Source of the DNA: a virus
DNA: 64,000 bases
IMG/VR virus record: IMGVR_UViG_3300045988_183539
Direction: 5' to 3' (one strand)
Shown: positions 749-48,378 of the stretch, in pieces
Position numbering within the stretch: position 1 is the first letter of the stretch
How the letters are laid out: each line of letters begins with the position of its first letter
Notes under the pieces: model-generated
Told to the model about the DNA's origin: nothing
The model's input: the letters and a program-made list of their open reading frames with translations, nothing else
The model's database searches: none
Position numbers and translations under genes: made by a program

Positions 749-3217
749 ATGGGATTTGGTAAAAAAAATAAAAATAATATAAATACTGTTGATAATGAAC
801 AGAATAAAAATAAAAAGAAAACTAATAAAAAGAAGATTAAAATACCTAAAACAGTTCAAGATACTTTAGATTGGGAATGTGTTTTTGAAAATGGTGTTTT
901 TCAAATAGGTCCTAAAAGATTTTCTAAAACTTTTTATTTTGAAGATATTGCTTTTAAAACAAAATCTGATGAAGACCAGATGGCTATTTATCAGGCATAT
1001 TTAAGATTTCTTAATTCTATAAATCCTGATGAAGATTTATTTATTACTTTTGTTAATTATAAAGATGATGAAAATGCTAAGTTAGCGGCAATCCTTCCTA
1101 TAAATAAAGATGATGGCTTTAATAATTATAGAAAAGAATTAGGAACTATTTTAAGAAATAATATTAAATTAAGTAGAAATGCTATATCTACAAAAAGATA
1201 TATTACTGTTTATGTAAATGCAGATACAGTTGATAATGCAATGTTGAGACTAAATGAATTAGAAACAACTTTAGAAAATGCTTTTAAAAAAATATGTGGT
1301 GCAAAATTAACAGCCATATCTTTAGAAGAAAGATTAGAAGTTATTAATAATATTTTAAATGGCACAGATGAAGCAAACTATTGGTTTGTACACGATAAAA
1401 CAGGAAAAACAACTATAGATTTTAAAGAAATGGCAAGACAAAAGCTTACTACTAAAGATATTATAGCTCCTCAGTCTATGAAATTTTATAGTAATCGTTT
1501 TGAAATTAATGAAAGAATAGGACAGGGAATGTATCTTGATAATTTAGCAAACTGGATGGATACTAATTTTTTACCTAGTCTGATAGCTGTTAATTTTGAG
1601 TCAGTTTTTACTATTCATATATCTGCATTAGAGCAGACAGAAGCAATAAAGAAGGTACATAATAAATCTATTAATATAAATGCTGAAATAGAAGATAAAA
1701 TGGATGCAAGAGCAGCAAAAGGCAAAGACCCTACTTTTATTAATGCAGATTTAAGAAAAGCACAGGCTGAAATAGAAGATTTACAAAATGATATTCAAAA
1801 CAGAGACCAGAAATATTTCTTTATGGATATGTCTATTATTCATTTTGCAGAAAATAAGCAGATTTTAAAAGAACAAGAAAAAATAATAAAAAATAGTGCA
1901 AATAAATATATGTGTTCGATAAAACCAGCTTTAGAACAGCAGGAAAGATGTCTTATTAGTACATTACCTTTGGGTCATAACAAAATGTTCCAGACAAGAG
2001 GTCTTACTACAGAAAATTTAGGAGTTTTCTTACCTTTCGATGAGATAAACCAGTTTGATGTTAATGGTATTTATTATGGAGTAAATGCTATTAATAAATC
2101 TTTAATAGTTTATGACAGAACAAAAGGTATGAATTATAATGGTTTAATTTTTGGTGCTTCTGGTTCTGGTAAATCTTTTAGTGCTAAACGTGAAATAACA
2201 AGTGTTCTTCTTAATAAAAATGCAAATTGTTATATCATAGACCCAGATGATGAATATACACCTATTGCAGATGCATTTGGTGGAACTATAATTAAAATAT
2301 CACCTGGTAATGGTGTTTATATAAATCCCTTCGATTTAGATATAGATACATCTGCTGATAGTGATTTAAACCCTATTACTATGAAGATAGATTTTATTTG
2401 TGGTTTGCTGGAAACAATGATAGGAAATAATGCTAAATTATCTCCAACACAAATTTCTATTGTTACTAGATGTGTACAACAGATATATAGACCTTATTTA
2501 GAGCATTTACAGGAACTCCCTCCAGACGAAAATGGTAGAAAACGTACTATAGATAGAGATTATTGTCCTACAATGCAGAATTTATTTGATGCTTTAATTA
2601 ACCAGCCTCAATCAGAAGCTCAAAACCTTGCCTTAATTATGGAAACATATACAGCAGGAGCATTTGATACATTTGCTCATAGAACAAATGTAGATATAGA
2701 TAATAAGTTTATTATTTTTAATATATCTAACATTGGTACAAACTTAAAAGAATTAGGTCTTAAAATTTGTGTAAACCACGTCTGGAATAAAATGGTAGAA
2801 AACAGAAGAAATAAGAAATGGACTTGGTTTTATATAGATGAATTCCATTTACTTCTTAAGAGCCATTCGACATCAGATTTCATAATGTCTATTTTTAAGA
2901 GAGCTAGAAAGTTCTTAGGAGTTACTACAGGTATTACGCAAAATGTTGGAGATTTACTTAGAACAGAAGATGGACAAGCTATTATTAATAATACATCTTT
3001 CATTTATATGTTAAATCAATCAGCAATGGATAGATATGATTTACAAAAATTATTAAAACTGTCTGATGGAGATGTTGAATATGTTACAAATGTAGAACAA
3101 GGTCACGGTCTTATTTATACAGGAACACAGACAATACCATTTTCTGATGATTTCCCAGAAGATACTAAGTTATATGATATTATGACAACTAAACCTAAAC
3201 AAGAGGAAGTTGCGTAA
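749..3217 (+). CDS. VirB4-like conjugative transfer ATPase (TcpF/Orf16/TrsE class)
   Basis: 822 aa; Walker A GASGSGKSF, Walker B WFYIDEFHLLL, with size and domain order of Gram-positive VirB4 homologs. AAAGGA RBS. Confidence 0.8.
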   Translation: MGFGKKNKNNINTVDNEQNKNKKKTNKKKIKIPKTVQDTLDWECVFENGVFQIGPKRFSKTFYFEDIAFKTKSDEDQMAIYQAYLRFLNSINPDEDLFITFVNYKDDENAKLAAILPINKDDGFNNYRKELGTILRNNIKLSRNAISTKRYITVYVNADTVDNAMLRLNELETTLENAFKKICGAKLTAISLEERLEVINNILNGTDEANYWFVHDKTGKTTIDFKEMARQKLTTKDIIAPQSMKFYSNRFEINERIGQGMYLDNLANWMDTNFLPSLIAVNFESVFTIHISALEQTEAIKKVHNKSININAEIEDKMDARAAKGKDPTFINADLRKAQAEIEDLQNDIQNRDQKYFFMDMSIIHFAENKQILKEQEKIIKNSANKYMCSIKPALEQQERCLISTLPLGHNKMFQTRGLTTENLGVFLPFDEINQFDVNGIYYGVNAINKSLIVYDRTKGMNYNGLIFGASGSGKSFSAKREITSVLLNKNANCYIIDPDDEYTPIADAFGGTIIKISPGNGVYINPFDLDIDTSADSDLNPITMKIDFICGLLETMIGNNAKLSPTQISIVTRCVQQIYRPYLEHLQELPPDENGRKRTIDRDYCPTMQNLFDALINQPQSEAQNLALIMETYTAGAFDTFAHRTNVDIDNKFIIFNISNIGTNLKELGLKICVNHVWNKMVENRRNKKWTWFYIDEFHLLLKSHSTSDFIMSIFKRARKFLGVTTGITQNVGDLLRTEDGQAIINNTSFIYMLNQSAMDRYDLQKLLKLSDGDVEYVTNVEQGHGLIYTGTQTIPFSDDFPEDTKLYDIMTTKPKQEEVA

Positions 3218-4201: not shown

Positions 4202-7200
4202 ATGAATAGTAAGGCAAATAATAGTAGTAATAATACAAAAAATCAGACACGACAGCAAAAAACTACTAATCAGAATAATACATCAAAATCATCAAATAAT
4301 AGTAATAATAGTAAACCATCTGCATCACAGACACAAAATAATGAAACAAAGACTTCAACTTCGTCTTCAACAAATTATAATACAAGACAGGCTGTAAATA
4401 CTATTGGCAGAGATATTTACAATTTAACAGATGGACGAATAAAATTAGGTTCATTTCAAGAAGGTGGAGGACGTGCTGGAGCTAGACAGGCTTTAGCTGA
4501 AACTGTATATAATTATACAACACAAGGTACAAGAGATAGAGAAAACAATTCCTTTTTTGATAATAAAATGAGGTTTAATAAAACAATAGCAGTTATGTCT
4601 GCTGTTGGTCATACAGCTAAAGAGAATGCTGTTATAAATACATATAATAATATTGATTGGAATAGTTCTAAAATACAGACCCAAATGACAAAAATGGGTA
4701 TCCTTTCTAATAACAGCCAGCAATACCTTAATAGCTTTTTAAGTTCTAATACTGTAGTTGTTCCTAATAATGAAATAAAGAATGTAAATGAAGACAAAAT
4801 TACATTAGGTGATTTAAAATTAAATAATTCACAAAAGGCTAGTTTAATAAATACAGGTAAGTTTACTTTTGAAGGACAAGAATATCATATAAAAGATAAA
4901 GAGTTGTCAGAAGTAAGAAAAGCCTATAATGCTGCAAAAATAGAAATAAAAAATAATAATAATATTACTAAAGCTCTTACAGGTAAAGATAAAGAATTAG
5001 TAATGCAGCAGATAAAAAGCAAACAGACAGATTATCTTAAAAAAATTAGTGTTACAGGTGGATTTAATGGTAGTTTAGCTTCTACTAAGAAAGAAATTAA
5101 AGCTATAGATTATAAGTTAGAGATATTAGAATGTAAATTAAAATCTGCTAATAATGCAACAGACTTACATAACTTTAAAAGCCAGATTGCAGAATTAAAA
5201 GATTATAAAGAGTCATTTATGTTATATAAAGAAACAGGAGCTATAACAGAAGACTTTGATAGAGGTGCTGGAAGAAAAAAATATGGCCGTTCTATAATTG
5301 CTCAAAATATCATTGGCAGTGATATGTATAGAGGAACTAAATTTATTCAAAATAGTAGTAAAGCTATTATTAGTGGTGCAAGATTAACAATTAAGACAAC
5401 AACAAAGGCTAGTGCTGGATTAGTTAGTGCAGCAACATATATTCCAAGAAAAACAAGTCCAAATTCTAAAGCAGGAATAATAAGCAATAATATTAATAAT
5501 AATGCACAGAAATATAAGAATAATATTAACGATAAGATAAGACATAAGACAAAAGAAGAAAAAAAAGCTCAGGCAAAAGAAAGAAAAGTTACTCATAAAG
5601 CAGAAGCTTTAGAAAAAAGAGAGAAAAGACTTGAAAGAACAGAAGCTAGAATTAATATTTTAAAAACAGGTAAATTAACTGATGCAGAAGAAAAAAGACT
5701 TCAAAAATTAACAGAAAAGATAAATAGTAAAAAAATAGTATCTAATAAAGAATTAAACGAATATAATGAGTTATTAAATAAAAAAGAAAAAGGTGTTTTA
5801 ACAAGAAAAGACCAGAAAGCTTTAACAAAACAGCAAAAAGTTTATAAAGCAAGAACAACATTATATAGTACTCCAGATAAAGTAAAAGAAACAGTAAAAG
5901 ATGGTTTAAAAAAATCTAAAGGTGTTGTTGTAAAAAAGGTAAAAACAACAAAGGCATATGATAAATATACACAGTTTAAAAATGGCAAATTCTATGGAAA
6001 TGCGATGAAAGTAAAAGGAAAGGTAAGAAATAGTAAGATTGGAAAAGCAAGTAAAGATATAAAATATACTATTTTACATCCTTTTAAAACTGTAAAAAAA
6101 ATAAAAGATATGATAATAGATAAGCCATTAATGTTCATTAAAAAGTATTTATTAAAAATCATTGGAACTGTTATAGCTTTATATCTTTTATTAATAGGTT
6201 TTGCTTTTATTATGTTATTACCTATATTAGGTATAGGTTCATTTTTTGACTCATTACCATCATCAACAATTTCTAATGAATTAGCACAAATAAATTATAT
6301 TCAATTAATTGTTAATGATACAGCTAATAATTTAGGTAAAGAACTTACAAAGACAGCAATAAAAGATGCGGAAACTCATTTTATATCAGAAAATGGAGCA
6401 GTTTCTTCTACAAAATATGATTGGAAGAAGAGTGTATCAGAAGGAAGTATAAAGCATATATGGGCTACAGAAGATTTAAATAAAGATGTCTGGGATAGAA
6501 CAGAACTTGCAGGAGTATCTGCTAATCTTTTACCTATTACAAGTATGATGCATTATAGATATAATCAATCAATTGATTTTGATAATTATTTAACTGCAAA
6601 AGCATATATATATTATATGTATGTAAGGTCACACGATACAGCCGCAGATGAAAATGGCAATATATATAGTTATGATACATTAGCAGATTGTTCAAACGAT
6701 AGTTTATATGTAACAAAACCTACATATGATATTGATAATAGTAAAGTAACAAGAGGAGTGGAAAGCTGTACTAATGTATATGTACACGGATATTCTTCCG
6801 ATTATAATAAAGCTATTAACAAAGCAAGGGCTGAATTAGGTGATTTTTTAAATATGGTTCAGAGTGCTTTAGGTATAGGACATCCAGATGGAACTAATGA
6901 AGATAATGGTGTATTTATAGACAAAAAACCTTATGATAGTAAAGGGGAATGTGACAACTATGAAGCATTTCAAGCTGGTGTAGGAAATAATTATACTAAT
7001 TGTGGAAAAGAAGAACACGACCATAATAAAGAAGGTTGTAGCAAAGCTTGGTATAATGGTGATGATATATGTACTATTGAGGAACATATACATAATGATG
7101 ATTGCTATATTCATAACAAAACATTTTTAGGTTATGATAATTGTGAATTTGGTGATATACACGAAGAAACAGCTGATTGTTATGAACTTCAATTTTTACC

Positions 7201-8647
7201 ACAGAAAACAAGAGTTTATTTTAATGAATGTTCACATAGTATCTTAATAGATATTAATGATTACAAGGAAAATGATGAATATTATTGTGAAGAATGTGAA
7301 CAGTATAGAACAGAAAACCGACATTTTGATGGTTATTTTGAGTGGGTAAATGTTCAAGTATGTAATGGACATCACGAACACAATGAAAATTGTGCTAAAT
7401 ATGATGAATATACTGAATTAATATGTACAAAAGAAGAGCATAGTCACGAAGCTAATGGAGAAACCTTAAATTGGACTTGTGGTAAAGAAGGTCATATACA
7501 TAATGCTTGGCATTCAGAAAATGACCCAGGCTGTTATAAGACAGCTTACATTTGTATGGGTCATTGTGGAGGACATATATCTCCAACAATAAATATATCA
7601 CAGGATATGAGCTATACTACATTAAGCAAATTAGATAATTTTAAAACACCAAAATTAATCACACAATCAGATTTTTCTCTTTGTCAAATTAAAGAAACAT
7701 ATAAAACTATAGATGCTTGGCAGAACCATTGGATAACAACATTTAATTCTTGGTATTATTTTCCACTTAGAGGACCAATACAATCTATAGAATGGAAAGC
7801 TAAAAAACTTACACAAGGAACTTTAACTTTTGCTAATTGGGCTGTAGGTAAAATAAATGGTTCAGAAATATCTTATAAAGATGATGATAAATATAAGATG
7901 GAAGGATATGATTTATTTGAATTTGAAGGCTGGACAAAAGAACAGAATGGTGATTGGGTAATTAAACAAGAAGTATTAGATGATTTAAAATTATTATATG
8001 GTGATTACTATGATGACAAATATGCAATGGGTATACAAAATTGGGATGCTTTTCAAGTAAGTTTTCCATCAGCAGTTAATGAAAGTCTTAGCAGTACACA
8101 GATAGATGATACTTTAACTAAGATAAAGAAAGAAAATTCATTAACTCCAAAACAAGAAGCTATAATAAAAGAAGGATTAAATGCAGTTGGAAATTATTAT
8201 TATTCTGAAAGCAAAAACAGTCCTAATGCACATCTTAATGCTGTGTATGGCAGAAAGATTGATGGACAGGATACTTATAATGGACCAGCAGATGCATCAG
8301 GATTTTTAATAGGTATAATCAGAAGAGGAATAATTTCTGTTAATGGTTATAATGGCTTAATAGATGAAAATACAGATTTTTATGGACAAGGATTTGTTAC
8401 TACAGATTATAAAGTAGGAGATATATTAAGTAGTGCTGATGGCAAATGTGCTATGTATTTAGGAGCATTGGAGAAAGGAATAGATAATTATTCTGTTTTA
8501 ACAATGAAATCACATAGTAGTAGTGATAAACAAAATAAAACAGGTTTTTATGTTTTAGAATGTTCTAAAGATTATGGTGGAGTTGTTGTCAGAAAAGTAA
8601 CAAAAAGTGAATTAGAAGCATCGTACACACATTGTTATAGAATTTAA
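4202..8647 (+). CDS. large multidomain surface/cell-wall protein: low-complexity N-terminus, Lys-rich coiled-coil, TM segment, Cys/His-rich repeat region, C-terminal NlpC/P60-like domain
   Basis: 1481 aa with AGGAG RBS. Central hydrophobic segment IIGTVIALYLLLIGFAFIMLLPILGIGSFF. Repeated C-x-x-EEH-x-H motifs. C-terminus resembles NlpC/P60 (VYGRKIDGQ...DASGFL...GDIL...GKCAMYLG). Position matches cell-wall hydrolases of Gram-positive T4SS. Confidence 0.65.
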   Translation: MNSKANNSSNNTKNQTRQQKTTNQNNTSKSSNNSNNSKPSASQTQNNETKTSTSSSTNYNTRQAVNTIGRDIYNLTDGRIKLGSFQEGGGRAGARQALAETVYNYTTQGTRDRENNSFFDNKMRFNKTIAVMSAVGHTAKENAVINTYNNIDWNSSKIQTQMTKMGILSNNSQQYLNSFLSSNTVVVPNNEIKNVNEDKITLGDLKLNNSQKASLINTGKFTFEGQEYHIKDKELSEVRKAYNAAKIEIKNNNNITKALTGKDKELVMQQIKSKQTDYLKKISVTGGFNGSLASTKKEIKAIDYKLEILECKLKSANNATDLHNFKSQIAELKDYKESFMLYKETGAITEDFDRGAGRKKYGRSIIAQNIIGSDMYRGTKFIQNSSKAIISGARLTIKTTTKASAGLVSAATYIPRKTSPNSKAGIISNNINNNAQKYKNNINDKIRHKTKEEKKAQAKERKVTHKAEALEKREKRLERTEARINILKTGKLTDAEEKRLQKLTEKINSKKIVSNKELNEYNELLNKKEKGVLTRKDQKALTKQQKVYKARTTLYSTPDKVKETVKDGLKKSKGVVVKKVKTTKAYDKYTQFKNGKFYGNAMKVKGKVRNSKIGKASKDIKYTILHPFKTVKKIKDMIIDKPLMFIKKYLLKIIGTVIALYLLLIGFAFIMLLPILGIGSFFDSLPSSTISNELAQINYIQLIVNDTANNLGKELTKTAIKDAETHFISENGAVSSTKYDWKKSVSEGSIKHIWATEDLNKDVWDRTELAGVSANLLPITSMMHYRYNQSIDFDNYLTAKAYIYYMYVRSHDTAADENGNIYSYDTLADCSNDSLYVTKPTYDIDNSKVTRGVESCTNVYVHGYSSDYNKAINKARAELGDFLNMVQSALGIGHPDGTNEDNGVFIDKKPYDSKGECDNYEAFQAGVGNNYTNCGKEEHDHNKEGCSKAWYNGDDICTIEEHIHNDDCYIHNKTFLGYDNCEFGDIHEETADCYELQFLPQKTRVYFNECSHSILIDINDYKENDEYYCEECEQYRTENRHFDGYFEWVNVQVCNGHHEHNENCAKYDEYTELICTKEEHSHEANGETLNWTCGKEGHIHNAWHSENDPGCYKTAYICMGHCGGHISPTINISQDMSYTTLSKLDNFKTPKLITQSDFSLCQIKETYKTIDAWQNHWITTFNSWYYFPLRGPIQSIEWKAKKLTQGTLTFANWAVGKINGSEISYKDDDKYKMEGYDLFEFEGWTKEQNGDWVIKQEVLDDLKLLYGDYYDDKYAMGIQNWDAFQVSFPSAVNESLSSTQIDDTLTKIKKENSLTPKQEAIIKEGLNAVGNYYYSESKNSPNAHLNAVYGRKIDGQDTYNGPADASGFLIGIIRRGIISVNGYNGLIDENTDFYGQGFVTTDYKVGDILSSADGKCAMYLGALEKGIDNYSVLTMKSHSSSDKQNKTGFYVLECSKDYGGVVVRKVTKSELEASYTHCYRI

Positions 8648-8869: not shown

Positions 8870-10468
8870 ATGAATAATGTAGAAATAAAGAAATATGATG
8901 CTAAAATCAAGGAAATTGATAAAATAATAAACACATATTCTGAGAGTAAAAATTTAGGTATAAAGTTATACTATGTTCCTGAAATATATTCAGAAAATAA
9001 GATTGATTATATAGCAATAAAATCTAATAATGAGTTTTATAAAATTCCTACGATTAAATACAATGATAATCCATTGTATTTAATGAATGTAATTACAAGA
9101 GATTTATGTAATCTGGACTTATTAGAAGTCTTAACAGATGATAAAGTAATAGATGCAATCAAATCTATTTATAAACAGGATATAACATTAAATGAAGCAT
9201 TAAACAACAAAAAAATTGAAAGATTTATAACTCCTATTAAAGAAAGATTAGATGATGTTTTGGAACATATAACATTACCTGCAAGAAGTAATAAGAAAGG
9301 TTTTTATGACAGAACAAAATTAGATGCAATAAAAAGATATGTTGCAGAAAATAGTAATTTTAAACCTGTTTATGAAAACGAATACTGTTTAATTTTTGGG
9401 AAAAAGATGCCAAGAAGTGATGAAAATATATTAATAAGCAGTCATTCTGATATTGTAAATACGATAACAAATGTAAACAGTTCTTATAAGAACGGATTTT
9501 ATCACGGAACATATGATAATTTAGGTACTAATGCGGCAGCAGTATCTATTATGTGTATGAATGAAAATAACTTATCAGATAATGTTTTTTTTGCTTTTAC
9601 TGCTGAAGAAGAGACAGGTAGATGTTTAGGAGCAAAATCAGCTTATCAATTTATGGAAAGAAATTCAAAATATCCAACATTATATGTATCTTTAGATGTA
9701 ACAGATGAAGGATATGATGATAATAGATTATGTTCAATAGAAGGATTACACGCTAACAATGATATTAAAAGTAAAATCGCAGATAGTATGATGATAACTG
9801 AAGGAGAAGAGCAATCATTCTGTGTTATAAAAGCAAAACATAAAGATAGTTCTCCTTTTAATAAAGATTATATTGATGGAAATTATACTGTTTTTGATGA
9901 AGGTGTTTATTATGGTCAGACTTTAAACCAAAATGCATTAAGCTTTTGTTTACCTACTGATGGAAGTATGCATAGTAATACAGGTTTAGATGTTAAAGAT
10001 AGTATATTTACAGGATATATTTTATCGCTTGATACTTTTATACACCAATACACTAATACTAAAAACTTTGAAATTGAAGATATAAAAGATTATAAGGATT
10101 ATCTTGTAAATAAAGCAAAAGAAACAAAGAAAGTCTATGCTTTTGATAATCTTAATTATAGACCTGATTTTAGTTATACGCTAGATGATTATTATGAAGA
10201 AGATGAAGATTTATATGCGGATTCTTTTAGTATTGCTGAATTATATGGAATTGATTTAGATGAAAAAGGAAAAATATCTTCAGATGATATACCATATGAA
10301 TTAGAATCAACATTATCAGAACTTGCAGAAGGATATGGTGCAACTGAAATATATGAATATTTAGCAGATATGGATTGTGAGTTTGGGGGAATTATACCTG
10401 AAGAAGTTTTAGTTCCGATTTTTAATAAATATCACGAACAGGAAGAGGAATTAGATTATACATCCTAA
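8870..10468 (+). CDS. M20/M28/M42-family dinuclear zinc peptidase-like protein with acidic C-terminal tail
   Basis: Motif order H-x-D (SSHSDIV), D-N-x-G (YDNLGTNAAAV), EE (FTAEEETG), D (SLDVTDEG), H (GSMHSNTG), as in M28/M42 aminopeptidases. Confidence 0.5.
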   Translation: MNNVEIKKYDAKIKEIDKIINTYSESKNLGIKLYYVPEIYSENKIDYIAIKSNNEFYKIPTIKYNDNPLYLMNVITRDLCNLDLLEVLTDDKVIDAIKSIYKQDITLNEALNNKKIERFITPIKERLDDVLEHITLPARSNKKGFYDRTKLDAIKRYVAENSNFKPVYENEYCLIFGKKMPRSDENILISSHSDIVNTITNVNSSYKNGFYHGTYDNLGTNAAAVSIMCMNENNLSDNVFFAFTAEEETGRCLGAKSAYQFMERNSKYPTLYVSLDVTDEGYDDNRLCSIEGLHANNDIKSKIADSMMITEGEEQSFCVIKAKHKDSSPFNKDYIDGNYTVFDEGVYYGQTLNQNALSFCLPTDGSMHSNTGLDVKDSIFTGYILSLDTFIHQYTNTKNFEIEDIKDYKDYLVNKAKETKKVYAFDNLNYRPDFSYTLDDYYEEDEDLYADSFSIAELYGIDLDEKGKISSDDIPYELESTLSELAEGYGATEIYEYLADMDCEFGGIIPEEVLVPIFNKYHEQEEELDYTS

Positions 10469-10576: not shown

Positions 10577-11443
10577 ATGAGAAAAATAATAAATAATTTT
10601 GTACAAATATCTATTCTGTTATGTTTTATTGTAATTTTTAGTTCAAATAAAATAAATGTATATGCTTCAGATGATATTCCAACAGTAACACTTGATGCTG
10701 GACACGATAGCTTTCATACAGGAGCAACAGCAAATGAATTATATGAAGAAAAATTAAATTTAATAATTACAAATTATTGTAAAGATTATTTAGAAAAACA
10801 TTCTAATATTATTGTGTATTTATCAAGGGATAATTTTACCTGTCCTTATCCAGACACACCATATAAAGATTGTAATTATGAAAGGTTAATAAAAGCAAAA
10901 GAAGTAAATACAGACCTTTTTTATAGCATTCATTGTAATTATAGTCCACACGAATATATGAATGGAGCTAGTGTTATAATTCCAAATACAAATTTTAAAC
11001 CATATTTTTATGAAGAAGGAAATATATTAGCAAATATTATAAAAAATAATTATAGTAATTTAATTCCTGTTACAGAAATATATACAAGAAATTCAGATGA
11101 AGATGAAGAAACAATAGATAATTTCTATCCAGATGAAACAAGGGCTGATTATTATAATGTAAATAGAACAAGTAAATATAATGATTTTTTAGGAATTATT
11201 GTTGAACACGGATTTCTTTCTAATACAAATAATGCAGAAATTTTAAAGAATACAGATATTTTAAAACAAATAGGTGAAGCTGATGCAAAGTCTATAATAG
11301 AGTATTTTAAAAATAAAGGATATGATTGTGAATTAGAATATATAGAACAAAAAACAACACCCGATATTGATAAAGTAAAAGATTTATTTATAAAAGAAAG
11401 ATACAAAAAATTCAAATTTTTTATAGAATTTTTAAATAAATAA
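10577..11443 (+). CDS. N-acetylmuramoyl-L-alanine amidase (Amidase_3/CwlD-like) with signal peptide
   Basis: N-terminal hydrophobic signal; motifs TLDAGHDSFHTGAT, SIHCNY, EHGFLSN typical of the Amidase_3 fold. Confidence 0.7.
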   Translation: MRKIINNFVQISILLCFIVIFSSNKINVYASDDIPTVTLDAGHDSFHTGATANELYEEKLNLIITNYCKDYLEKHSNIIVYLSRDNFTCPYPDTPYKDCNYERLIKAKEVNTDLFYSIHCNYSPHEYMNGASVIIPNTNFKPYFYEEGNILANIIKNNYSNLIPVTEIYTRNSDEDEETIDNFYPDETRADYYNVNRTSKYNDFLGIIVEHGFLSNTNNAEILKNTDILKQIGEADAKSIIEYFKNKGYDCELEYIEQKTTPDIDKVKDLFIKERYKKFKFFIEFLNK

Positions 11444-13529: not shown

Positions 13530-14300
13530 ATGTATTGGGAAAATATAGAAGAACAAGTATGGAATAATGCTAGTTTTGTAAATAGTAAAGAAATACAAGA
13601 GATTAGAAGTAAACAATTTAAAAATCCTGTTATTTATGTTGATATGGATGGTACATTGTTTCAATGGAATAGATTAAAAAGTAAAGAATACCCAGATGGT
13701 GTTACTTTAGAAATGGTTTATTCACCTGGTTATTTTAGAAATTTAAAACCTAATTTAGGTATTTTAGAATTAGTAAATGCTTTACACGATAAAGGATATG
13801 ATATAAAGATAGCATCTAAATCTAGTTATACAGCTATAAAAGAAAAATTTGATAGCTTAATGGAATATTTACCTTTTTTAAACAAAAATGATATTTATTT
13901 TATTCCTTTAAATGCAAATAAGTCAGATTTTCTTCCAAATATAAAATCTAATGATATTTTAATAGATGACTATAATCCTAATTTAGATGAATTTAAAGGA
14001 AGTGTTATAAAATGTGTTACAGATATTAATACAATAAATCCTAAATACCCTTGGATTGAAAATAATGCTCCAGTTTATAAAAATATAGATAAAATAACTT
14101 GGACTTTAATAAGAGAATGGAAGTTTTCACAAAATTCAGAAAATCCTTTAAACTTTACAGATTTAAAATACATTTTTGATAAAAGTGTTATGTCTTTTGA
14201 AGATTTTTATAATATATGTAATGGTTTTAATATTAATTTAGATGAGTTTGCTTTTTTAAAAACAGAAAATGAAAAAGATGAAGAAGAAATAGAAATATAA
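13530..14300 (+). CDS. HAD-superfamily 5'(3')-deoxyribonucleotidase-like protein
   Basis: N-terminal VIYVDMDGTLFQW (DxDGT HAD motif I in the NT5C-like context); 256 aa. Confidence 0.55.
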   Translation: MYWENIEEQVWNNASFVNSKEIQEIRSKQFKNPVIYVDMDGTLFQWNRLKSKEYPDGVTLEMVYSPGYFRNLKPNLGILELVNALHDKGYDIKIASKSSYTAIKEKFDSLMEYLPFLNKNDIYFIPLNANKSDFLPNIKSNDILIDDYNPNLDEFKGSVIKCVTDINTINPKYPWIENNAPVYKNIDKITWTLIREWKFSQNSENPLNFTDLKYIFDKSVMSFEDFYNICNGFNINLDEFAFLKTENEKDEEEIEI

Positions 14301-21989: not shown

Positions 21990-23105
21990 ATGGAAAATAC
22001 AAATACATCTTTAACATTAGATGAAATAATAGAAAAGAACAGAAAAGATTTATTTTCAGAATTAAATGAATTCTTAGATAATGAAAAGATAACAGATATT
22101 GAATGGGATGGCGAACATTTATGGATAACAGAGTTAGGAAAAGGCTGTTATCCTGTTGATAAAAAATTATCTATAGATTTTGTGAATAATTTAAGTATCA
22201 GATTATCAAATATAATGAAAACTAATTTTAATGCTTTAAACCCTATATTGGAAGCACATACAAAAGAATTAAGAATATCAATCTTTCACGAAAGCAGAAC
22301 TGGGGAAAAATCTATAACTATTAGGAAAATTCCTACAAATATAAGATATAACCACGAAAAATTAGTAAAAGATAATACAATCCCAGAAGAATTATTAAAC
22401 CTATTAGAAAATTGTGTTAAAGCACATTGTAATATAGTTGTTGGAGGAAGACCTCACGCAGGAAAAACAGAATTAGTTAAATACTTATCTAATTTTATAC
22501 CAGCAAATGAGAAAGTAGTGACATTAGAGGATAATGCAGAAATCCATTATAGAGAAATACATCCTAATAGAAAGAGTGTATCATTTTTAGTTGATGATAA
22601 AGTAACATATTCAGATGCTATTAAGGCTTGTTTGAGACATAATGCTGATTGGTTACTATTATCTGAAGCAAGAGGACCAGAGATTATTGAACTTCTTAAT
22701 GCACTTAGTACAGGAAGTTATTGTATGACGACAGTACACGTAGATGGAGCTAAAGACATTCCTGATAGAATGTATAATATGCTTAATAATAGTAGTATAA
22801 ATGAAAGATTTATCAATAACATATATCGTTATATGGATGTAGGAATAATAATAAAAGCTGATAAAAAAGAAAACAGAATTATATCAGAAGTTGGATTTTT
22901 TAACAGAGCAAATGTTAAGAATGAAGATGGAGAATATGAAATGCAGAACATTTATACACCTTTTTATAATACATTTGAAGGGTTAAAAGATAAAGATAAG
23001 TTACCTATAAATATCCAAAGAGCATTTGTAAGAGAAAATATTAAAAATCCATTTGAAAAACCAGAAATTACTGATGAAATAAAGGAAGTTTCTGTAAATG
23101 GTTAA
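21990..23105 (+). CDS. TadA/CpaF/VirB11-family secretion ATPase
   Basis: Walker A VVGGRPHAGKTE, Walker B/Asp box WLLLSEARGPE, 371 aa. Confidence 0.7.
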   Translation: MENTNTSLTLDEIIEKNRKDLFSELNEFLDNEKITDIEWDGEHLWITELGKGCYPVDKKLSIDFVNNLSIRLSNIMKTNFNALNPILEAHTKELRISIFHESRTGEKSITIRKIPTNIRYNHEKLVKDNTIPEELLNLLENCVKAHCNIVVGGRPHAGKTELVKYLSNFIPANEKVVTLEDNAEIHYREIHPNRKSVSFLVDDKVTYSDAIKACLRHNADWLLLSEARGPEIIELLNALSTGSYCMTTVHVDGAKDIPDRMYNMLNNSSINERFINNIYRYMDVGIIIKADKKENRIISEVGFFNRANVKNEDGEYEMQNIYTPFYNTFEGLKDKDKLPINIQRAFVRENIKNPFEKPEITDEIKEVSVNG

Positions 23106-26017: not shown

Positions 26018-27286
26018 ATGGAAAAAATAAAATATTCAGCTAGTGAAAAAAAGAATAGACATTTGTTATTTGAAACTAATAAAAATTTATTTATTACAGG
26101 AGCAGGAGGTACAGGAAAATCTACTTTTCTAAATGAATTTATAGAAAAGAACCCTAATACAATAGTAACAGCTCCAACAGGAATAGCGGCTGTAAATATA
26201 GGAGGAGTAACAACTTTTAATGCTTTTAGTATACCAATACCTTGTTTTGGAGCTACAACAAATAAACTGACTGAAGCAAAATTAAAGAAGATAATTATGG
26301 TTGATAATGTAATTATTGATGAAATAAGTATGTGCAGAGTAGATGCTTTTGTTTATATCACAAAGGTAATTAAAAAAGCTGAAAAGATAAAAGGTAAGAA
26401 GATAAGAATTATTGTTAGTGGGGATTTCTCACAGCTTCCTCCTGTAATTACAGATGAAGATGCTAAAATGTTAAAAAAATTTGGTTTTCATAAGTCTGGG
26501 TTGCCTTTTACTTGTAAAGAGTGGGAAAATTGTCATTTTACTACTATAGAGCTTACAGAAGTTAAAAGACAGGATAATCTTGAATTTATAGAAAACTTAA
26601 ATAAAGCCAGATTAGCAGATAAAAAATGTATAACATATTTTAATCAGTTTGTAACAGATGAAATTCCAGATGATTGTATTCATATATGTGGAACTAACGC
26701 AGAAAGTTCTAAACTTAATAAAGAATATTTGGACTCATTAGAGGGTATGCCATATGCGTATCAGGCAGTAAAACAAGGAAGAACTACAGGAGCATATGTA
26801 GATGATATTATTATTCTTAAAGATGGAGCAAATGTATATTTTACAGTCAATGATATATACGAGCATAAATATGTTAATGGAACATTTGGAAAAATACATA
26901 AATGTTTTAATGACCATATAGAAGTAGAAGTTGATGAAGAAATAATAGATGTTTACCCACACAGATATTCGGTTTATAATTATAAAATTATAAATGGAGT
27001 ATTAAAGAAAGAAGAAATTGGTTCAGTTTTACAAATGCCTTTAAAATTAGCTAAAGCAATTACTGTGCATAAATCCCAAGGCAAAACTTTTAATAAAGAA
27101 GTGTTTACACCTAAAATATTCGCAGCAGGACAGGCTTATGTTGCATTAAGCAGAGTAAGAAATCCTGAAGGTTTATTTTTAACAGAACCTTTACTTCCAG
27201 AACAATTAATGTCAGACAGAACAGTACTTAAATTTTATAAAAATAATTATAAATTTGAAAGTAATCGTAAAAAAACAGAAAAATAA
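26018..27286 (+). CDS. Pif1/RecD-family (AAA_30 + UvrD_C_2) DNA helicase
   Basis: ITGAGGTGKST Walker A, APTGIAAVNIGG, IIDEISM Walker B, TVHKSQGKTF, AAGQAYVALSRVRNPEGLF C-terminal motif. Confidence 0.75.
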   Translation: MEKIKYSASEKKNRHLLFETNKNLFITGAGGTGKSTFLNEFIEKNPNTIVTAPTGIAAVNIGGVTTFNAFSIPIPCFGATTNKLTEAKLKKIIMVDNVIIDEISMCRVDAFVYITKVIKKAEKIKGKKIRIIVSGDFSQLPPVITDEDAKMLKKFGFHKSGLPFTCKEWENCHFTTIELTEVKRQDNLEFIENLNKARLADKKCITYFNQFVTDEIPDDCIHICGTNAESSKLNKEYLDSLEGMPYAYQAVKQGRTTGAYVDDIIILKDGANVYFTVNDIYEHKYVNGTFGKIHKCFNDHIEVEVDEEIIDVYPHRYSVYNYKIINGVLKKEEIGSVLQMPLKLAKAITVHKSQGKTFNKEVFTPKIFAAGQAYVALSRVRNPEGLFLTEPLLPEQLMSDRTVLKFYKNNYKFESNRKKTEK

Positions 27287-31219: not shown

Positions 31220-32788
31220 ATGAGTATTGGAATATTTATAGCTGTAGTAGTTGTAGCTTTATTATTAATGAGTTATATAAAAGCACCAACAGATAAGGCT
31301 TTTATTGTATCAGGCTTAAGGAAGAAGCCTAAGTATGTAATAGGAAGGTCAGCACTTCGTATTCCATTTTTACAGAGAGTAGATAAGCTTGATTTAAAAA
31401 TGATTAGTGTTGATGTAAAAACTAAAGAGTCAGTTCCTACAAATGAATATATTAATGTAAATATTGATTCAGCAGTTAAAATTAAGGTTGGTTTATCACC
31501 AGATATGTTAGAAAAGGCAGCTAATAACTTCTTAAATAAAAATGATTTATATATTAGAGACCAGGTTGTTGATGTACTTGAAGGTAATGTTCGTGAAATT
31601 ATTGGGCAGATGAAGCTTGAAGAAATTGTTCAGGATAGAAAGTTATTTGCTGAAAAGGTACAGGAAAACGCTGCTCCAGATATGGAAAAGATGGGTCTTG
31701 AAATAGTAAGTTTTAATGTACAGAATGTTACTGATGAAGGCAATGTTATTGAAAACTTAGGTATTGATAGAGTAGTAAGTATTTCTAAGTCAGCACAGAT
31801 TTCAAGAGCAGAAAGTGAAAGAGATATTGCTGTTGCTAAAGCTAATGCTGAAAAACAGGCTAATGATGCAAGAATTGAAGCAGAAACAGCTATTGCAGAA
31901 AGAAATAACGAACTTGAAATTAAAAAGCAGGAGTTAAAGAAGGCTGCTGATATTAGAAAAGCTGAAGCAGATGCCGCTTATGAAATTCAGGAACAGGAAC
32001 AACGAAAGACTATTGAAATCACAACTGCAAATGCTAATATAGCAAAGCAGGAAAAGGAGATTGAACTTAGAGAAAAGGAAATTGCTGTTAAGGAAAAGAC
32101 ACTTGATGCTGAAATCCGTAAACAGGCAGAAGCAGAAAAGTATGCCGCACAGCAGAAGGCAGATGCAGACCTTTATTTAAGACAGAAGGAAGCAGAAGCA
32201 AAGCAGTTTGAAATTGTTAAACAAGCTGAGGCTAAGAAATCACAGGCAGAAGCAGATAGATTTGCTAAGGAACAGGAAGCAGAAGCTATTAAGGCACAGG
32301 GATTAGCAGAAGCAGAGAGCATTAAGGCTAAAGGTGTTGCTGATGCTGAAAGTATTAAGGCAAAGGGTATGGCAGAAGCAGAAGCTATGGAAAAGAAGGC
32401 AACTGCCTATGAGAAGTATGGTAAGGCTGCTATGACTGATATGATTATTAAGATACTTCCAGAAATGGCAGGACAGATTGCTAAACCTCTTGAAGCCATT
32501 GATAAGGTTACTATTATTGATGGTGGTAATGGTGAAACAGGGGTAGGTTCATTTAGTGGTAATGTTCCTTCAGTACTTGCAAAGACTATTGAATCTGTTA
32601 AGGAAACAACAGGATTTGACCTTACAGAGGTTATGAAAGCTAATACATATGATGCTAAAACAACTAAGAATGTTAATTTTACAGGACTTCCTAATGAAGT
32701 TAATGTAGATGCTTCTAATGTTTCTGATATAGAAGATGTGTTTGAAAATACTGATTTTGATAAGGCTATGAAAAAGCTTTCTGATTAA
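31220..32788 (+). CDS. flotillin-like SPFH/band-7 protein
   Basis: N-terminal TM helix, SPFH-like region, long Ala/Glu/Lys coiled-coil with EA repeats typical of FloT/YqiK. Confidence 0.7.
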   Translation: MSIGIFIAVVVVALLLMSYIKAPTDKAFIVSGLRKKPKYVIGRSALRIPFLQRVDKLDLKMISVDVKTKESVPTNEYINVNIDSAVKIKVGLSPDMLEKAANNFLNKNDLYIRDQVVDVLEGNVREIIGQMKLEEIVQDRKLFAEKVQENAAPDMEKMGLEIVSFNVQNVTDEGNVIENLGIDRVVSISKSAQISRAESERDIAVAKANAEKQANDARIEAETAIAERNNELEIKKQELKKAADIRKAEADAAYEIQEQEQRKTIEITTANANIAKQEKEIELREKEIAVKEKTLDAEIRKQAEAEKYAAQQKADADLYLRQKEAEAKQFEIVKQAEAKKSQAEADRFAKEQEAEAIKAQGLAEAESIKAKGVADAESIKAKGMAEAEAMEKKATAYEKYGKAAMTDMIIKILPEMAGQIAKPLEAIDKVTIIDGGNGETGVGSFSGNVPSVLAKTIESVKETTGFDLTEVMKANTYDAKTTKNVNFTGLPNEVNVDASNVSDIEDVFENTDFDKAMKKLSD

Positions 32789-32940: not shown

Positions 32941-32959
32941 AAAATTGAGGATTTATATT

Positions 32960-33847
32960 ATGAAAGATTGGATAAAAAATATTCATACCATTGATAAGAC
33001 TTGTGTAAATTCTGAAGGGGAATATTATAAATATACAGAATTTAACAGAAAGCCAATATCTTTATATATCGTTGTAACAAGAGATTGTAATGCCAGATGT
33101 CCTTTTTGTGAATATAGAGGAAAACTAAAAAAAATCAATATCAATAAATTTGAAGAAATTTTTATTGAGTTAAGTAAATATTATGATATTACAACAGTTC
33201 ATTTTACAGGTGGAGAACCTACCTTAGAATTAGATACAATTAATGTATTAAGCAAAGTCATAAAAGAAATTTCTCCTTTAACTAAAACAAGCGTTAACAC
33301 CAATGGAATATTCTTAAATGAATTGTCTAATATAGATACAATAGATAATATTGCTTTAAGCAGACACACTATTATAGATAAAGATAATTTTAATATTTTT
33401 AGAACCAATAATATCGCTACATATGAAAATATTTATAATAATAATTATAAGGAAAAAATTCATTTAAGCTGTAATCTTATAAAAGGATATATAGATAGTA
33501 GTGATAAAATATTAGAATATCTTGAAATGGCATCTAAATTAGATATTAATGATGTAGGTTTTGTTAGTCTTATGCATATAAATAATTATTGTGAAGAAAA
33601 TTTTGTAGAATTTAGTAATATAATTCCAAAGGAAAAGGATTTTTTTAATAAAACAAGAGATTATAAATGTATTAATAATAAAAATATAATTACTTGCAAG
33701 TGTGAAAATTATCTTTATAGAGCTAAAAATATGAATTTTATATCAATGTATCATAGATATGCTATTAAGAATAATGAAAAAGCAGATTTTCTTGTTTATG
33801 AAAACAATCATTTAAAACAAGGCTTTAATGGAAATATATTAATATAA
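32960..33847 (+). CDS. radical SAM enzyme
   Basis: CNARCPFCEY (CxxxCxxC) near the N-terminus and a GGEP motif (HFTGGEPTL). GAGGA RBS before ATG 32960 (track start 32945). Confidence 0.6.
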   Translation: MKDWIKNIHTIDKTCVNSEGEYYKYTEFNRKPISLYIVVTRDCNARCPFCEYRGKLKKININKFEEIFIELSKYYDITTVHFTGGEPTLELDTINVLSKVIKEISPLTKTSVNTNGIFLNELSNIDTIDNIALSRHTIIDKDNFNIFRTNNIATYENIYNNNYKEKIHLSCNLIKGYIDSSDKILEYLEMASKLDINDVGFVSLMHINNYCEENFVEFSNIIPKEKDFFNKTRDYKCINNKNIITCKCENYLYRAKNMNFISMYHRYAIKNNEKADFLVYENNHLKQGFNGNILI

Positions 33848-35360: not shown

Positions 35361-35801
35361 ATGAAACATAATATAAAGCAAATATCTTTTATGATAGCGT
35401 CTTTTAAAGATATTACTGATTCTTTTGGAGAAAATAAGAAATCTATAGAATTTTTTAAAAGGCAGGTTGAAGGTCTTGTTAATATAGGTCAGTTAAATTA
35501 TTTAGATGTTATTTTATTCTATAATATATTAGATATATATAATACTAATTTAGAAGAAATAGACTGGATTAAATTAAATAAGAATTTAAACGAATACATA
35601 GAAACTATGAGTAAGGTTGTAAATATAAAAAATAAAGATAGCGTGTATTATTTATTAACAGATAATAATAATATATCTAAGCAGACTAAAAAAGTTATAT
35701 TTAGGACATTAGATATAAAAGATGAAGATTATAAAATAAGTTCAAAGGATAATGATATATCTTTTGGTAGTTATGAAAAGAATAATTCATTTTTATATTA
35801 G
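35361..35801 (+). CDS. hypothetical protein, paralog of 34618-35319
   Basis: See above; GGAG RBS. Confidence 0.5.
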   Translation: MKHNIKQISFMIASFKDITDSFGENKKSIEFFKRQVEGLVNIGQLNYLDVILFYNILDIYNTNLEEIDWIKLNKNLNEYIETMSKVVNIKNKDSVYYLLTDNNNISKQTKKVIFRTLDIKDEDYKISSKDNDISFGSYEKNNSFLY

Positions 35802-36489
35802 AGATTGTATTAATGAACATACTAATGAATTAAGAGAAGATATTTTAGGTTCAAGAAAAGAAAGATGGATGATTGGTGTTAGTTGTATGAGTGGTTGTCC
35901 TGTAAGATGCCAGTTTTGTAATACTGGAAAATTAAAAAGGTATAGAAATCTATCTGCAAAAGAGATATATGAACAGGTTGTTTTTATATTAGACAAGCAT
36001 CCAGAGATAAAAGAGATTGATAGTAAGGAATTTAAGATTAATTATACAAGAATGGGAGAACCTTTTCTTAATATTGAAGCTGTAAAAGAAGCTATCACTC
36101 TTATAGACAATGAGCCAAGATTAAAGAATGTCAAGATACATCATTATATAAGCACAATAGGACTTAAAGGTAGTGATTTTAGTTTTGTAAAGGATAATAT
36201 TACTTTACAAATTAGCTTACATAGTCTTAATGAAGATAGAAGACACAATCTTATTCCTATAGATGGACTTATGAGTATAAAAGAACTTGGCGAAATAAGA
36301 ACAGAAAGTAATCTTAAGACAACTGTTAATATGACGCTTGTAGACACAAAAGACTTTGATATTGATATTATGAAAAAGTATTTTGACCCTAAGTATTTTT
36401 TTATTAAGCTTAGTCCTATTAATGAGAATGAGGTTAGTAAGGAACATAATATGGGTAAAGGTATTATTCATAGAGAAAATTTAATATAA
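35773..36489 (+). CDS. RlmN/Cfr-family radical SAM protein, trimmed form lacking the N-terminal domain and the C-terminal Cys-bearing tail
   Basis: GVSCMSGCPVRCQFCNTG...RNLSAKEIYEQV, TRMGEPFLN, ISTIGL and LQISLHSLNEDRRHNLIPI align with the RlmN core. No Cys after the cluster. Start uncertain (35752, 35773 or 35866). Confidence 0.6.
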   Translation: MKRIIHFYIRDCINEHTNELREDILGSRKERWMIGVSCMSGCPVRCQFCNTGKLKRYRNLSAKEIYEQVVFILDKHPEIKEIDSKEFKINYTRMGEPFLNIEAVKEAITLIDNEPRLKNVKIHHYISTIGLKGSDFSFVKDNITLQISLHSLNEDRRHNLIPIDGLMSIKELGEIRTESNLKTTVNMTLVDTKDFDIDIMKKYFDPKYFFIKLSPINENEVSKEHNMGKGIIHRENLI

Positions 36490-39527: not shown

Positions 39528-40781
39528 ATGAAAGATTATATATTAATGCATAAAAATATTGAAGTGGCATTAATGAAGTTAGATGAAAATGATGCTAATT
39601 CAAAGCCATCAAAGATATATTTGAATGAAAAAGAACAAGACCATATTCCTATCGGAGCAAGAATGAATAATATTAAATTCATTAACTGGTGGCAGGATAG
39701 GGCAATCCCTAAAACAAGGCAGGGAGCAAGAACAGCTTTACAAAGATTAGGATATAGTTCAGTTACAAATGCTATGATAAATAATCTGGCTTTAAGTCTT
39801 AATGATTGTTATTGGATAAAACCCAGATATTCAGAATTAACTTGGGAAGAAGTTAATTTATTTTCAAATAATTTTGTTGATGCTTTTGGAGAACTCACCT
39901 TTAACCAAACAGAGGATTTAGATTTAAGAAAATATACTAAGTTTTTAAGTGCTGTTTCACAAGGAGAAGTTCAAAAGAAATGGTGTATAGATAAGGATAA
40001 TCATAGGTATCTTGTAAAAGGTAATTATGGCAATTCTTATCAACAAAGCATTAATGAAGTATTTGCCAGCAATTTTCATAAAGACCAAAATTTTAATAAT
40101 TACACACCTTATTATTTTTGCAATATTGAACTTACAAATAACAGAAAAGGATTAGGATGTTTTTCTTATAACTTTTGTAATGAAAATATTGAAAGTATTT
40201 CAGCTTGGGAATTATTACAAACTAGAAAGATTAAACAAAATGAAAGCTTATACTATCCTTTCAAAGATATATGCTTATCGCTAGGAATCAAAGAAGATGA
40301 TTTTGATAATTTTATTGATTATGAGATTTGTAGTGATTTTTTATTTACAAATTTAGATAGACATATGAATAATATAAGTATTTTAAGAAATCCAGACACA
40401 TTAGAAATATTAGGGTTCGCTCCTATATATGATACTGGAAATAGTATGTTTTATAATGTTTCTACTAATGAATTAAATAATGTTAAGTTAGGACAAGATA
40501 AAACACATTCATTTATAACATCAAAAGAAAATAGATTGCTAAAGTATGTTAGAAATAAAGAGATTATAAACATAGATAAAATTAATACTGATTTCTCAAT
40601 ATACGAAAAGGATATTTATGATGATTTAAGGATTTCTTTATTAAAAGAAAAATTTGAAAGAAAAATAGATTTGTTGCTGTCTTTTCAAAAAGGCAATAAT
40701 ATCTGGGAAGATAATTATAATAAAATATATATACAGAATTATAATAATTCAATAGAAACTGATGAAATAGACTTAGATTAA
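39528..40781 (+). CDS. HipA-family Ser/Thr kinase-like toxin
   Basis: C-terminal catalytic motif LDRHMNN (D-x-H-x-x-N) and FAPIYDTGNS (DFG-like) as in the HipA fold; 417 aa. Confidence 0.65.
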   Translation: MKDYILMHKNIEVALMKLDENDANSKPSKIYLNEKEQDHIPIGARMNNIKFINWWQDRAIPKTRQGARTALQRLGYSSVTNAMINNLALSLNDCYWIKPRYSELTWEEVNLFSNNFVDAFGELTFNQTEDLDLRKYTKFLSAVSQGEVQKKWCIDKDNHRYLVKGNYGNSYQQSINEVFASNFHKDQNFNNYTPYYFCNIELTNNRKGLGCFSYNFCNENIESISAWELLQTRKIKQNESLYYPFKDICLSLGIKEDDFDNFIDYEICSDFLFTNLDRHMNNISILRNPDTLEILGFAPIYDTGNSMFYNVSTNELNNVKLGQDKTHSFITSKENRLLKYVRNKEIINIDKINTDFSIYEKDIYDDLRISLLKEKFERKIDLLLSFQKGNNIWEDNYNKIYIQNYNNSIETDEIDLD

Positions 40782-47882: not shown

Positions 47883-48362
47883 ATGAAAACTAAGAAAACA
47901 CTAAAATTAGAACAAGATATATATAATGCTACAAAGAAAGTGGGAGTCTTTGGATGTTTTGAAGTGACAATAGGTTTCTTTGGTAAAGAAAGAGTAGATT
48001 ATATGACATATGATACAAAAGGTATTTTTAGATGTTATGAAATAAAAGTAAGTAAGTCTGATTTTCATAGCAATGCTAAATTAAGTTTTGTAGGTCATTA
48101 TAATTATTATGTCCTTACAAGAAAATTATACGAAGAGGTTAAAGATGAAATACCTGATTGGGTTGGTGTTTATGTAGGAGAGAACCTTGTAAAATCACCT
48201 AAAAAGCAAGATATAGACGAAAAGGTATATAAATATAGAAGAACAATAAATGGTCGCTCTAGTGAGCTTACAATACCTTATAAAGAGATGTTAAAAGAAA
48301 GTATTATTAGGTCTCTATACAGAGATGCAAATAAATGGTATATTTATAATTATCAATTATAA
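47883..48362 (+). CDS. PD-(D/E)xK nuclease-fold protein (VRR-NUC/Hjc-like)
   Basis: GVFGCFEVTIGFFGKERVDYMTYD...FRCYEIKVSKSDF has the core beta-strand order with D...E-x-K. Confidence 0.45.
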   Translation: MKTKKTLKLEQDIYNATKKVGVFGCFEVTIGFFGKERVDYMTYDTKGIFRCYEIKVSKSDFHSNAKLSFVGHYNYYVLTRKLYEEVKDEIPDWVGVYVGENLVKSPKKQDIDEKVYKYRRTINGRSSELTIPYKEMLKESIIRSLYRDANKWYIYNYQL

Positions 48363-48378
48363 AGGTGGTATATATACT

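Follow-up and report, generated by a model that had tools for sequence, protein, structure and literature searches.

A variable array of candidate zinc-binding Cys/His modules in an unannotated protein encoded beside VirB4

We studied a 64,000-nucleotide DNA stretch, IMG/VR virus record IMGVR_UViG_3300045988_183539. This full 64-kb stretch is hereafter called the window, and all positions are given on it. Just downstream of a gene for a VirB4-like conjugal transfer ATPase, the window carries a gene for a 1481-amino-acid (aa) protein of an unannotated family. An earlier note on this DNA had pointed to a Cys/His-rich region inside this protein (positions 6945-7590, corresponding to aa 915-1130). 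Here we describe this region, its relatives, and what it may do in a conjugative type IV secretion system (T4SS).

The Cys/His-rich region and its repeated units

The protein and its parts are listed below, where U1 to U5 are the repeated units, D1 and D2 are two conserved domains, and the basis of the assignment is given in brackets.

4202-8647, + strand: open reading frame (ORF) of the 1481-aa protein bearing the Cys/His-rich region (ORF list)
4202-6148, + strand: N-terminal ~650 aa; N/S/T-rich at the start, helical K/E-rich stretches, signal peptide absent
6149-6241, + strand: single transmembrane helix, aa ~650-680 (Kyte-Doolittle)
6257-6976, + strand: predicted ectodomain D1, aa 686-~925, ending in the anchor GVFIDKKPYDSKGECDNY (AlphaFold2 (AF2) predicted local distance difference test (pLDDT), family identity)
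6950-7585, + strand: Cys/His-rich region, aa 917-1128, with 14 conserved Cys and 14 conserved His (residue counts, subfamily conservation)
7001-7105, + strand: U1 (C934, H939, H941, C946) and U2 (C957, H962, H964, C968-Y), a canonical double unit of the C-x4-H-x-H-x3-C module (hhalign, motif)
7142-7357, + strand: degenerate unit (C981, H987, C993), then a central piece specific to the subfamily (C1010, CEEC at 1029-1032) with a few predicted beta strands (alignment)
7361-7447, + strand: U3 (C1054, H1058, H1060, C1064) and U4 (C1075, H1080, H1082) (motif scan)
7478-7585, + strand: family-wide core, made of the last unit U5 (C1093, H1098, H1100 ... W-x-S-x3-PGC1111) and then the invariant C1118-x-GHCGGHI-x-P
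7586-8170, + strand: domain D2, aa ~1130-1320, mostly helical and conserved (AF2 secondary structure, family conservation)
8174-8644, + strand: C-terminal NlpC/P60-fold domain lacking the catalytic dyad, aa 1325-1481

The five motif strings quoted in the earlier note were all found in the translation of ORF 4202-8647 (+ strand): CGKEEHDHNKEGC at aa 934-946 (nt 7001-7039), CTIEEHIHNDDC at aa 957-968 (nt 7070-7105), CNGHHEHNENC at aa 1054-1064 (nt 7361-7393), CTKEEHSHEANG at aa 1075-1086 (from nt 7424) and CGKEGHIHNAWH at aa 1093-1104 (from nt 7478). The general form proposed for them, C-x-x-EEH-x-H-N, held in part: four units fit C-x2-E-[EG]-H-x-H, and an Asn follows the second His in four of the five. 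The claim of more than 25 Cys and more than 20 His was overstated, as the 216 residues encoded by 6945-7590 comprise 17 Cys and 18 His. This represents 17 of the 24 Cys and 18 of the 34 His of the whole protein, and the two residues together make up 16.2% of the region versus 1.8% of the rest (Fisher p = 2e-16). The region is also strongly acidic, with 44 D+E versus 13 K+R. The pattern C-x(2-4)-H-x-H occurs five times, against a mean of 0.036 in shuffles of the whole protein. When the Cys/His-rich region alone was shuffled, the mean was 0.33, and at least five occurrences were obtained in about 1/10,000 shuffles. A six-frame scan of the window with the looser C-x(3-5)-H-x-H found it within a real ORF only in ORF 4202-8647. 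At the DNA level, the similarity between units is only 71-82% over 17-28 nt, which makes them old repeats and not recent duplications.

Relatives of the region in conjugation loci and in Clostridia surface proteins

A first, word-indexed search returned only four relatives (99%, 55%, 55% and 27% identity). With full-length alignment, the word-indexed search gave the same four proteins, while the ectodomain alone as query gave 21; the low-complexity N-terminus probably filled the candidate list of the full-length search. An exhaustive hidden Markov model (HMM) search with a profile of the Cys/His region retrieved 108 proteins at E < 1e-3, which fall into two groups.

The first group is built like the window protein. 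These same-architecture relatives, 1100-1750 aa long and including P0001-P0006 and P0009, were picked and counted through the GHCGGH motif that most of them carry, and about 48 were compared. GHCGGH is invariant in two of the alignments of these relatives, A3 and A4. Conservation is good across aa 690-920, with a family identity of 0.4-0.6 per 20-aa block in D1, and again across aa 1097-1481, and it collapses across aa 921-1090. This makes the Cys/His segment an insert of variable length flanked by two anchors, GVFIDxxPYDSKGxCDNY on one side and C-G-K-x-E-H-x-H-x2-W-x-S-x3-PGC-Y-x-T-x-Y-x-C-x-GHCGGHI-x-P on the other. The length of the segment ranges from 55 to 307 aa across the family; its Cys+His content stays at ~17%, with a correlation of r = 0.92 between length and Cys+His count. 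The smallest relatives retain just the last unit and GHCGGH, and P0003 has two extra units relative to P0002.

We then looked at the constraint on individual residues by aligning ten subfamily members, 35-70% identical and with many indels, over the region. Twenty-eight of the 35 Cys and His of the window protein are kept in at least eight of nine homologs, versus 18% of other positions, and mean conservation is 0.82 for Cys/His and 0.37 for the other 202 residues (Mann-Whitney p = 3e-10). The conserved residues are 14 Cys (917, 934, 957, 968, 993, 1010, 1032, 1054, 1064, 1075, 1093, 1111, 1118 and 1122) and 14 His (939, 941, 962, 964, 987, 1057, 1058, 1060, 1080, 1082, 1098, 1100, 1121 and 1125). 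With the exception of C946, the ligand columns of U1 and U2 are invariant in the subfamily, those of U3 and U4 are kept in 8-9 of nine homologs, and H987, C993, C1010 and C1032, from the degenerate unit and the central piece, are conserved as well. The earlier note had considered that the region might be absent or unconserved in orthologs; this scenario fails, as the region was found in every relative and its Cys and His are kept far better than other positions.

The second group consists of 64 surface proteins, many of them 1500-3200 aa long, each with 5-19 tandem units directly after an N-terminal hydrophobic segment. The several that were examined have LPXTG anchors, and adhesive domains (Cna_B, DUF7601, PA14/fibro-slime or ice-binding-like) occur in individual proteins as well; one member of a repeat-protein cluster is named "choice-of-anchor A family protein" by NCBI. 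The gene of one of them, P0049, lies in an operon with the order signal peptidase, P0049, backbone pilin, sortase, and thus occupies the position expected for a pilus-tip protein or tip adhesin. In the 444 units taken from the 64 proteins, where C0, H5 and H7 were fixed by the search pattern, a Cys at +11, outside the pattern, is present in 97% and a Glu at +4, before H5, in 77%. The period is 20 aa and the consensus is L-[IV]-C-G-[LK]-E-E-H-[T]-H-[TDS]-[ED]-x-C-Y. When a double-unit profile of the surface proteins (A5) was compared by hhalign with the window-family profile (A2), it aligned to aa ~931-970 with a probability of 96.2% and E = 2.1e-9, and U1-U2 are therefore true members of the surface-protein repeat. 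U2 is fully canonical (C0, H5, H7, C11), and U1, U3 and U5 are variants. Read by eye, P0035 and P0029 show CHAP/NlpC-P60-type-looking sequence beside their repeat arrays, so the repeat may recur alongside wall-hydrolase folds outside T4SS loci.

Neither the region nor the repeat corresponds to an entry of the libraries searched. Pfam, NCBIfam and PHROGs gave no match for the whole protein, the region alone or the repeat-only proteins, and the Pfam zinc-finger models gave nothing beyond noise at E up to 10 for the region and the repeat-only proteins. A PDB sequence search with the double-unit profile had no match, Foldseek against PDB and BFVD returned nothing significant, and PDB sequence searches with the protein and with the ectodomain profile gave only a weak match of the C-terminal domain to LytE; matches to a nanobody His-tag and to NKR-P1B were noise. 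Literature searches turned up no description, whether of the motif strings or of T4SS components that are rich in Cys or bind zinc. The statement of the earlier note that it recognised no such domain in known T4SS hydrolases is in line with the Pfam, NCBIfam, PHROGs and PDB sequence searches, which gave no match for the region or for repeat-only proteins, and the searched libraries describe neither the protein family nor the repeat. Several known identities were considered and rejected. A c-type heme site would need CxxCH, which is lacking, and the residues after CEEC are E-Q. An M23/LytM HxH active site has no Pfam match and would not fit into units this short. A thioester adhesin domain has no Pfam match either and leaves the paired His unexplained. 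As for a radical SAM substrate, the radical SAM genes of the window are 25-40 kb away and look like nucleotide-modification types.

Protein architecture and possible roles of the array

Kyte-Doolittle 19-residue windows exceed 1.8 only at aa 648-685. The sequence before this helix is Lys-rich (about +7) and the sequence after it acidic, which fits the positive-inside rule. The protein is thus predicted to be a bitopic membrane protein with its first ~650 aa in the cytoplasm and its last ~800 aa outside; the outside location is supported by the single helix with its Lys-rich N-terminal side, by the NlpC/P60-fold domain downstream and by the module shared with LPXTG-anchored proteins. AF2 modeling of aa 686-1481 with a 23-sequence alignment gave a mean pLDDT of 73.9. 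D1 (aa 695-935), which contains the invariant motifs NLLPITSMMH and C-x-N-x-Y-x-HGY, reached 85-94, and D2 mostly 78-91 apart from a loop of low confidence (aa ~1190-1233); PDB comparisons gave no match for D1 other than the NlpC/P60 hits, and neither D1 nor D2 showed a recognisable enzyme fold. The central piece (aa ~1002-1051) has a few strands at a pLDDT of ~46-65. From aa 1097 onward, the tail of U5 and GHCGGH are modeled as beta strands packed into the next domain (pLDDT 89-93).

The C-terminal domain has the papain-like alpha+beta fold of NlpC/P60 (C40) endopeptidases. In the family profile, DCSGF and GHVVIYLG align to DCSGF and SHMGIYIG of LytE, which we take to be the motifs of NlpC/P60 enzymes where the catalytic Cys and His reside. 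In the window protein, these motifs read ADASGF, with A1365 (nt 8294-8296) where the catalytic Cys is expected, and GKCAMYLG, with K1415 (nt 8444-8446) where relatives have GHVxIYxG. Its hydrolase domain therefore looks inactive, judging from these substitutions. C-[ST]-G-F is kept in 23 of the 48 relatives and lost in 25. Pfam NLPC_P60 gave no match at E up to 1 for the whole window protein, and none at E up to 0.01 for P0008 and P0009, which keep the dyad. The earlier description as a cell-wall protein and T4SS hydrolase has to be corrected: the protein is predicted to be bitopic in the membrane, and its NlpC/P60-fold domain carries Ala and Lys where the catalytic Cys and His would be. Relatives without the catalytic Cys have a longer Cys/His region, the median distance from the HGY anchor to GHCGGH being 254 versus 168 aa (Mann-Whitney p = 6e-4, a test that ignores phylogeny). 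The array may have expanded as enzyme activity was lost.

The reading that we favour, with a probability of about 0.5, is that the region is an array of extracellular structural Zn(Cys2His2) modules, likely with one Zn2+ each, which would form a spacer of variable length in a conjugative T4SS protein. Four invariant residues in the order C,H,H,C, all within 12 positions, are what marks a tetrahedral zinc site, as known from zinc knuckles, and zinc is suggested by this tetrad together with the preceding Glu, the gain and loss of whole units and the extracellular setting. The non-random occurrence of the motif, the constraint on Cys and His, the homology of U1-U2 to the surface-protein repeat and the confident model of the last unit with GHCGGH also speak for this reading. 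Each ~20-aa unit would hold one structural Zn2+ via C0, H5, H7 and C11, and the 14 Cys and 14 His could supply up to seven tetrahedral four-ligand sites. The array grows or shrinks by gain and loss of units between two conserved parts of the ectodomain, and such a metal-stiffened spacer of adjustable length would position the distal domains inside the wall or on its far side. Metal binding, which the earlier note had suggested with Zn or Ni as candidates, is thus the most economical reading of the tetrad, with nothing specific in favour of nickel over zinc.

Several observations weigh against the zinc spacer. U4 has no Cys at +11 and the spacing of U1 and U5 is non-canonical, therefore not every unit is a self-contained site, and ligands may be shared between units. 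Most of the variable units, U3/U4 included (aa 943-1001 and 1052-1096), have a pLDDT below 50, and a single-sequence AF2 model of the repeat-only protein P0013, which was set aside as evidence, reached 45. The arrays of the surface proteins sit at the distal N-terminus, a position that fits binding better than a stalk. Moreover, we infer the spacer role from the anatomy of the protein only.

The distal position in the surface proteins leads to the main rival of the spacer, or its complement: a contact or adhesion surface, in which the units would bind a partner on the recipient or each other through shared Zn2+ and so stabilise mating pairs, and in the pilus-tip proteins attach to cells or surfaces. 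Zinc-mediated association of surface proteins is known from the "zinc zipper" of staphylococcal Aap/SasG. The long arrays placed distally, right after the signal sequence, in LPXTG proteins with adhesive domains are in line with such a role, as are the operon position of P0049, the rapid change in copy number that is typical of surface-exposed contact proteins, and the acidic character of the region. In the T4SS protein, however, the array is internal, between two conserved domains and not at a tip, no binding partner is known or predicted, and a contact surface is compatible with structural zinc and therefore no exclusive alternative. We consider it possible but rather unlikely as the function of the array here. 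Adhesion, as proposed in the earlier note, is hence plausible, given the module at the distal end of LPXTG proteins and in one sortase-pilus operon, but is not the reading that we favour. A metal-free origin of the rigidity appears less probable still. The two Cys of each unit, at fixed spacing, could form disulfides, either as C0-C11 loops or as cross-strand links between units, with the His serving in pH sensing or weak metal capture; a weak hint is the low-confidence P0013 model, in which C11 and the next C0, separated by a D-x-x-G turn, face each other across a hairpin. Disulfides explain neither the two His found in every recognised unit nor the Glu that precedes H5 in most surface-protein units. 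In addition, the sole relative assigned to a genome is in a Lachnospiraceae metagenome-assembled genome (MAG), and strict anaerobes live in reducing habitats and are mostly devoid of extracytoplasmic disulfide machinery.

That the region captures or stores metal, or senses its availability, seems improbable to us. Repeated surface His motifs do bind zinc in streptococcal polyhistidine-triad (Pht) proteins. The same is true of the cell-wall zinc proteins of Corynebacterium diphtheriae with HxD/HxH motifs (PMC12445094). The genes near the window protein, however, are T4SS and wall-enzyme genes, with no metal transporter or metal-regulated gene among them, the link to conjugation loci is conserved, and the motif resembles neither HxxHxH nor HxD...HxH and has no match to the Pfam histidine triad. 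A sensing role, also raised in the earlier note, found no supporting evidence. Least probable is a functionless, lineage-specific insertion of low complexity. The hypervariable length and the low AF2 confidence are what such an insertion would give, but the Cys/His columns of the subfamily are conserved far above background, the Cys+His content is constant at every length, and the unit is homologous to a repeat retained in unrelated surface proteins.

The conjugation locus and comparison with known systems

The genes around the Cys/His protein gene with a family assignment are the following.

749-3217, + strand: VirB4-like conjugal transfer ATPase, CD1110 family (NCBIfam NF045971, 759 bits vs cut-off 325)
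8870-10468, + strand: M20-like peptidase (Pfam PF01546, E = 2.8e-6)
10577-11443, + strand: Amidase_3 N-acetylmuramoyl-L-alanine amidase (Pfam PF01520, E = 2.8e-23)

The gene order PrgI(VirB3), VirB4, a ~260-aa gene and the Cys/His-protein gene is conserved in metagenome loci L001-L007; L005 has VirD4 upstream and ordinary chromosomal genes downstream. From this order and from the adjacency of VirB4, the protein belongs to a Gram-positive-type conjugative T4SS. The order of the M20-like peptidase and Amidase_3 genes is shared by L001-L003, L006 and L009-L012, and wall-cutting activity may be supplied separately by these neighbours. The T4SS cluster is accompanied by a gene for a T2SSE/VirB11-like ATPase (21990-23105), also present in L004-L006; VirB11 homologs are unusual in Gram-positive conjugation systems.

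The exact protein is found on 13 metagenome contigs, the longest of these in the 0.2-1 Mb class. One relative lies on a 244-kb IMG/VR contig and another on a contig of 407 kb, and the longest contigs with the window protein or P0117, a member of the cluster of P0005, reach up to 821 kb. Among 185,579 species genomes, a relative was found in one, the Lachnospiraceae MAG. No match was obtained in PLSDB plasmids (megablast with the gene, tblastn with the ectodomain and with P0013) or in GenBank phages (megablast with window positions 1-25000). The window seems to belong to a mobile element of very large size that is as yet undescribed. Thirty-eight of its 40 ORFs of at least 150 aa are on the + strand, GC is 22-28% with a strong positive GC skew, there are no tRNA genes, and most genes have no family match. 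Its cargo includes an NT5C-type 5'-nucleotidase (13530-14300), two PIF1-like helicases (26018-27286 and 57002-59674) and a Thg1-like tRNA-His guanylyltransferase (61908-62798), as well as three radical SAM proteins (32945-33847, 35752-36489 and 48325-49176), two of them with a Fer4_12 domain. This set of nucleic-acid-metabolism cargo is more typical of large phages than of plasmids. A flotillin/SPFH-domain protein (31220-32788) and a weak HipA C-terminal-like match (39528-40781; E = 1.9e-4, 21.6 bits, below the Pfam cut-off of 30.5 bits) were also seen.

Little is known about how Gram-positive conjugation machines cross the thick wall and hold the recipient, and to our knowledge the known wall-associated components of these machines are enzymes. 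Here, an unannotated family encoded beside VirB4 carries an array of metal-site-like units of variable length, and about half of its members, the window protein included, have no hydrolase active site. Surface and pilus-tip proteins of gut-type Clostridia bear the repeat in long arrays, although Pfam, NCBIfam and PDB have no entry for it. Should zinc binding be borne out, the repeat would represent a compact and new type of extracellular zinc module and might be one of the determinants of metal-dependent adhesion. A broader, speculative and somewhat doubtful idea is that the unit represents a new family of extracellular bacterial zinc-binding mini-domains, with which Clostridia would make Zn-dependent cell contacts at pilus tips and through a conjugation-channel protein. 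In the T4SS protein, a former wall-cutting enzyme would then have become an adhesin or spacer for mating that depends on metal, through expansion of the array and loss of the active site.

We compared the protein with Gram-positive T4SS hydrolases, namely PrgK (pCF10), TraG (pIP501), CwlT (ICEBs1), Orf14 (Tn916) and the hydrolases of Clostridioides difficile Tn916-like CTn elements (PDB 9ubf, 4hpe), using the generally known domain compositions of PrgK, TraG and CwlT. As in a PrgK/TraG/CwlT-like role, the gene is placed in the mating-channel cluster beside VirB3/VirB4 homologs. The window protein differs from those hydrolases by a ~650-aa N-terminus that is probably cytoplasmic, by the Cys/His array and by two conserved domains with no match. 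It has no Pfam NLPC_P60, CHAP, SLT or M23 match, its catalytic Cys and His are replaced, and a tblastn search of 72,556 plasmids found no relative.

A small Cys/His metal module is in itself a known kind, and what is new is the ligand pattern, the extracellular tandem use and the place in a T4SS protein. With the CCHC zinc knuckle (C-x2-C-x4-H-x4-C) and the C2H2 and CHHC fingers, the unit shares four Cys/His ligands within 12-14 residues, tandem arrangement and independence of the surrounding fold; it differs from them in its C-x4-H-x-H-x3-C order and spacing, its presumed extracellular bacterial location and its lack of a Pfam or PDB match. Pht and the C. diphtheriae proteins ZnuE/F/G and CmrA are likewise Gram-positive surface or cell-wall proteins with repeated, Zn-tied His motifs. 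Their motifs, HxxHxH or HxD and HxH separated by ~150 aa, are without Cys, and they belong to metal uptake and metal-regulated loci, whereas the window unit has E-H-x-H flanked by two Cys and lies in a conjugation cluster. Further counterparts are the repeat-bearing LPXTG and pilus-tip proteins of Clostridia (P0049, P0010, P0014, P0035). These are devoid of T4SS context, GHCGGH, D1 and D2, and have instead a signal peptide, an LPXTG anchor, pilin/adhesin domains and 5-19 near-canonical N-terminal copies of what is the same 20-aa C-x4-H-x-H-x3-C module as in the window protein.

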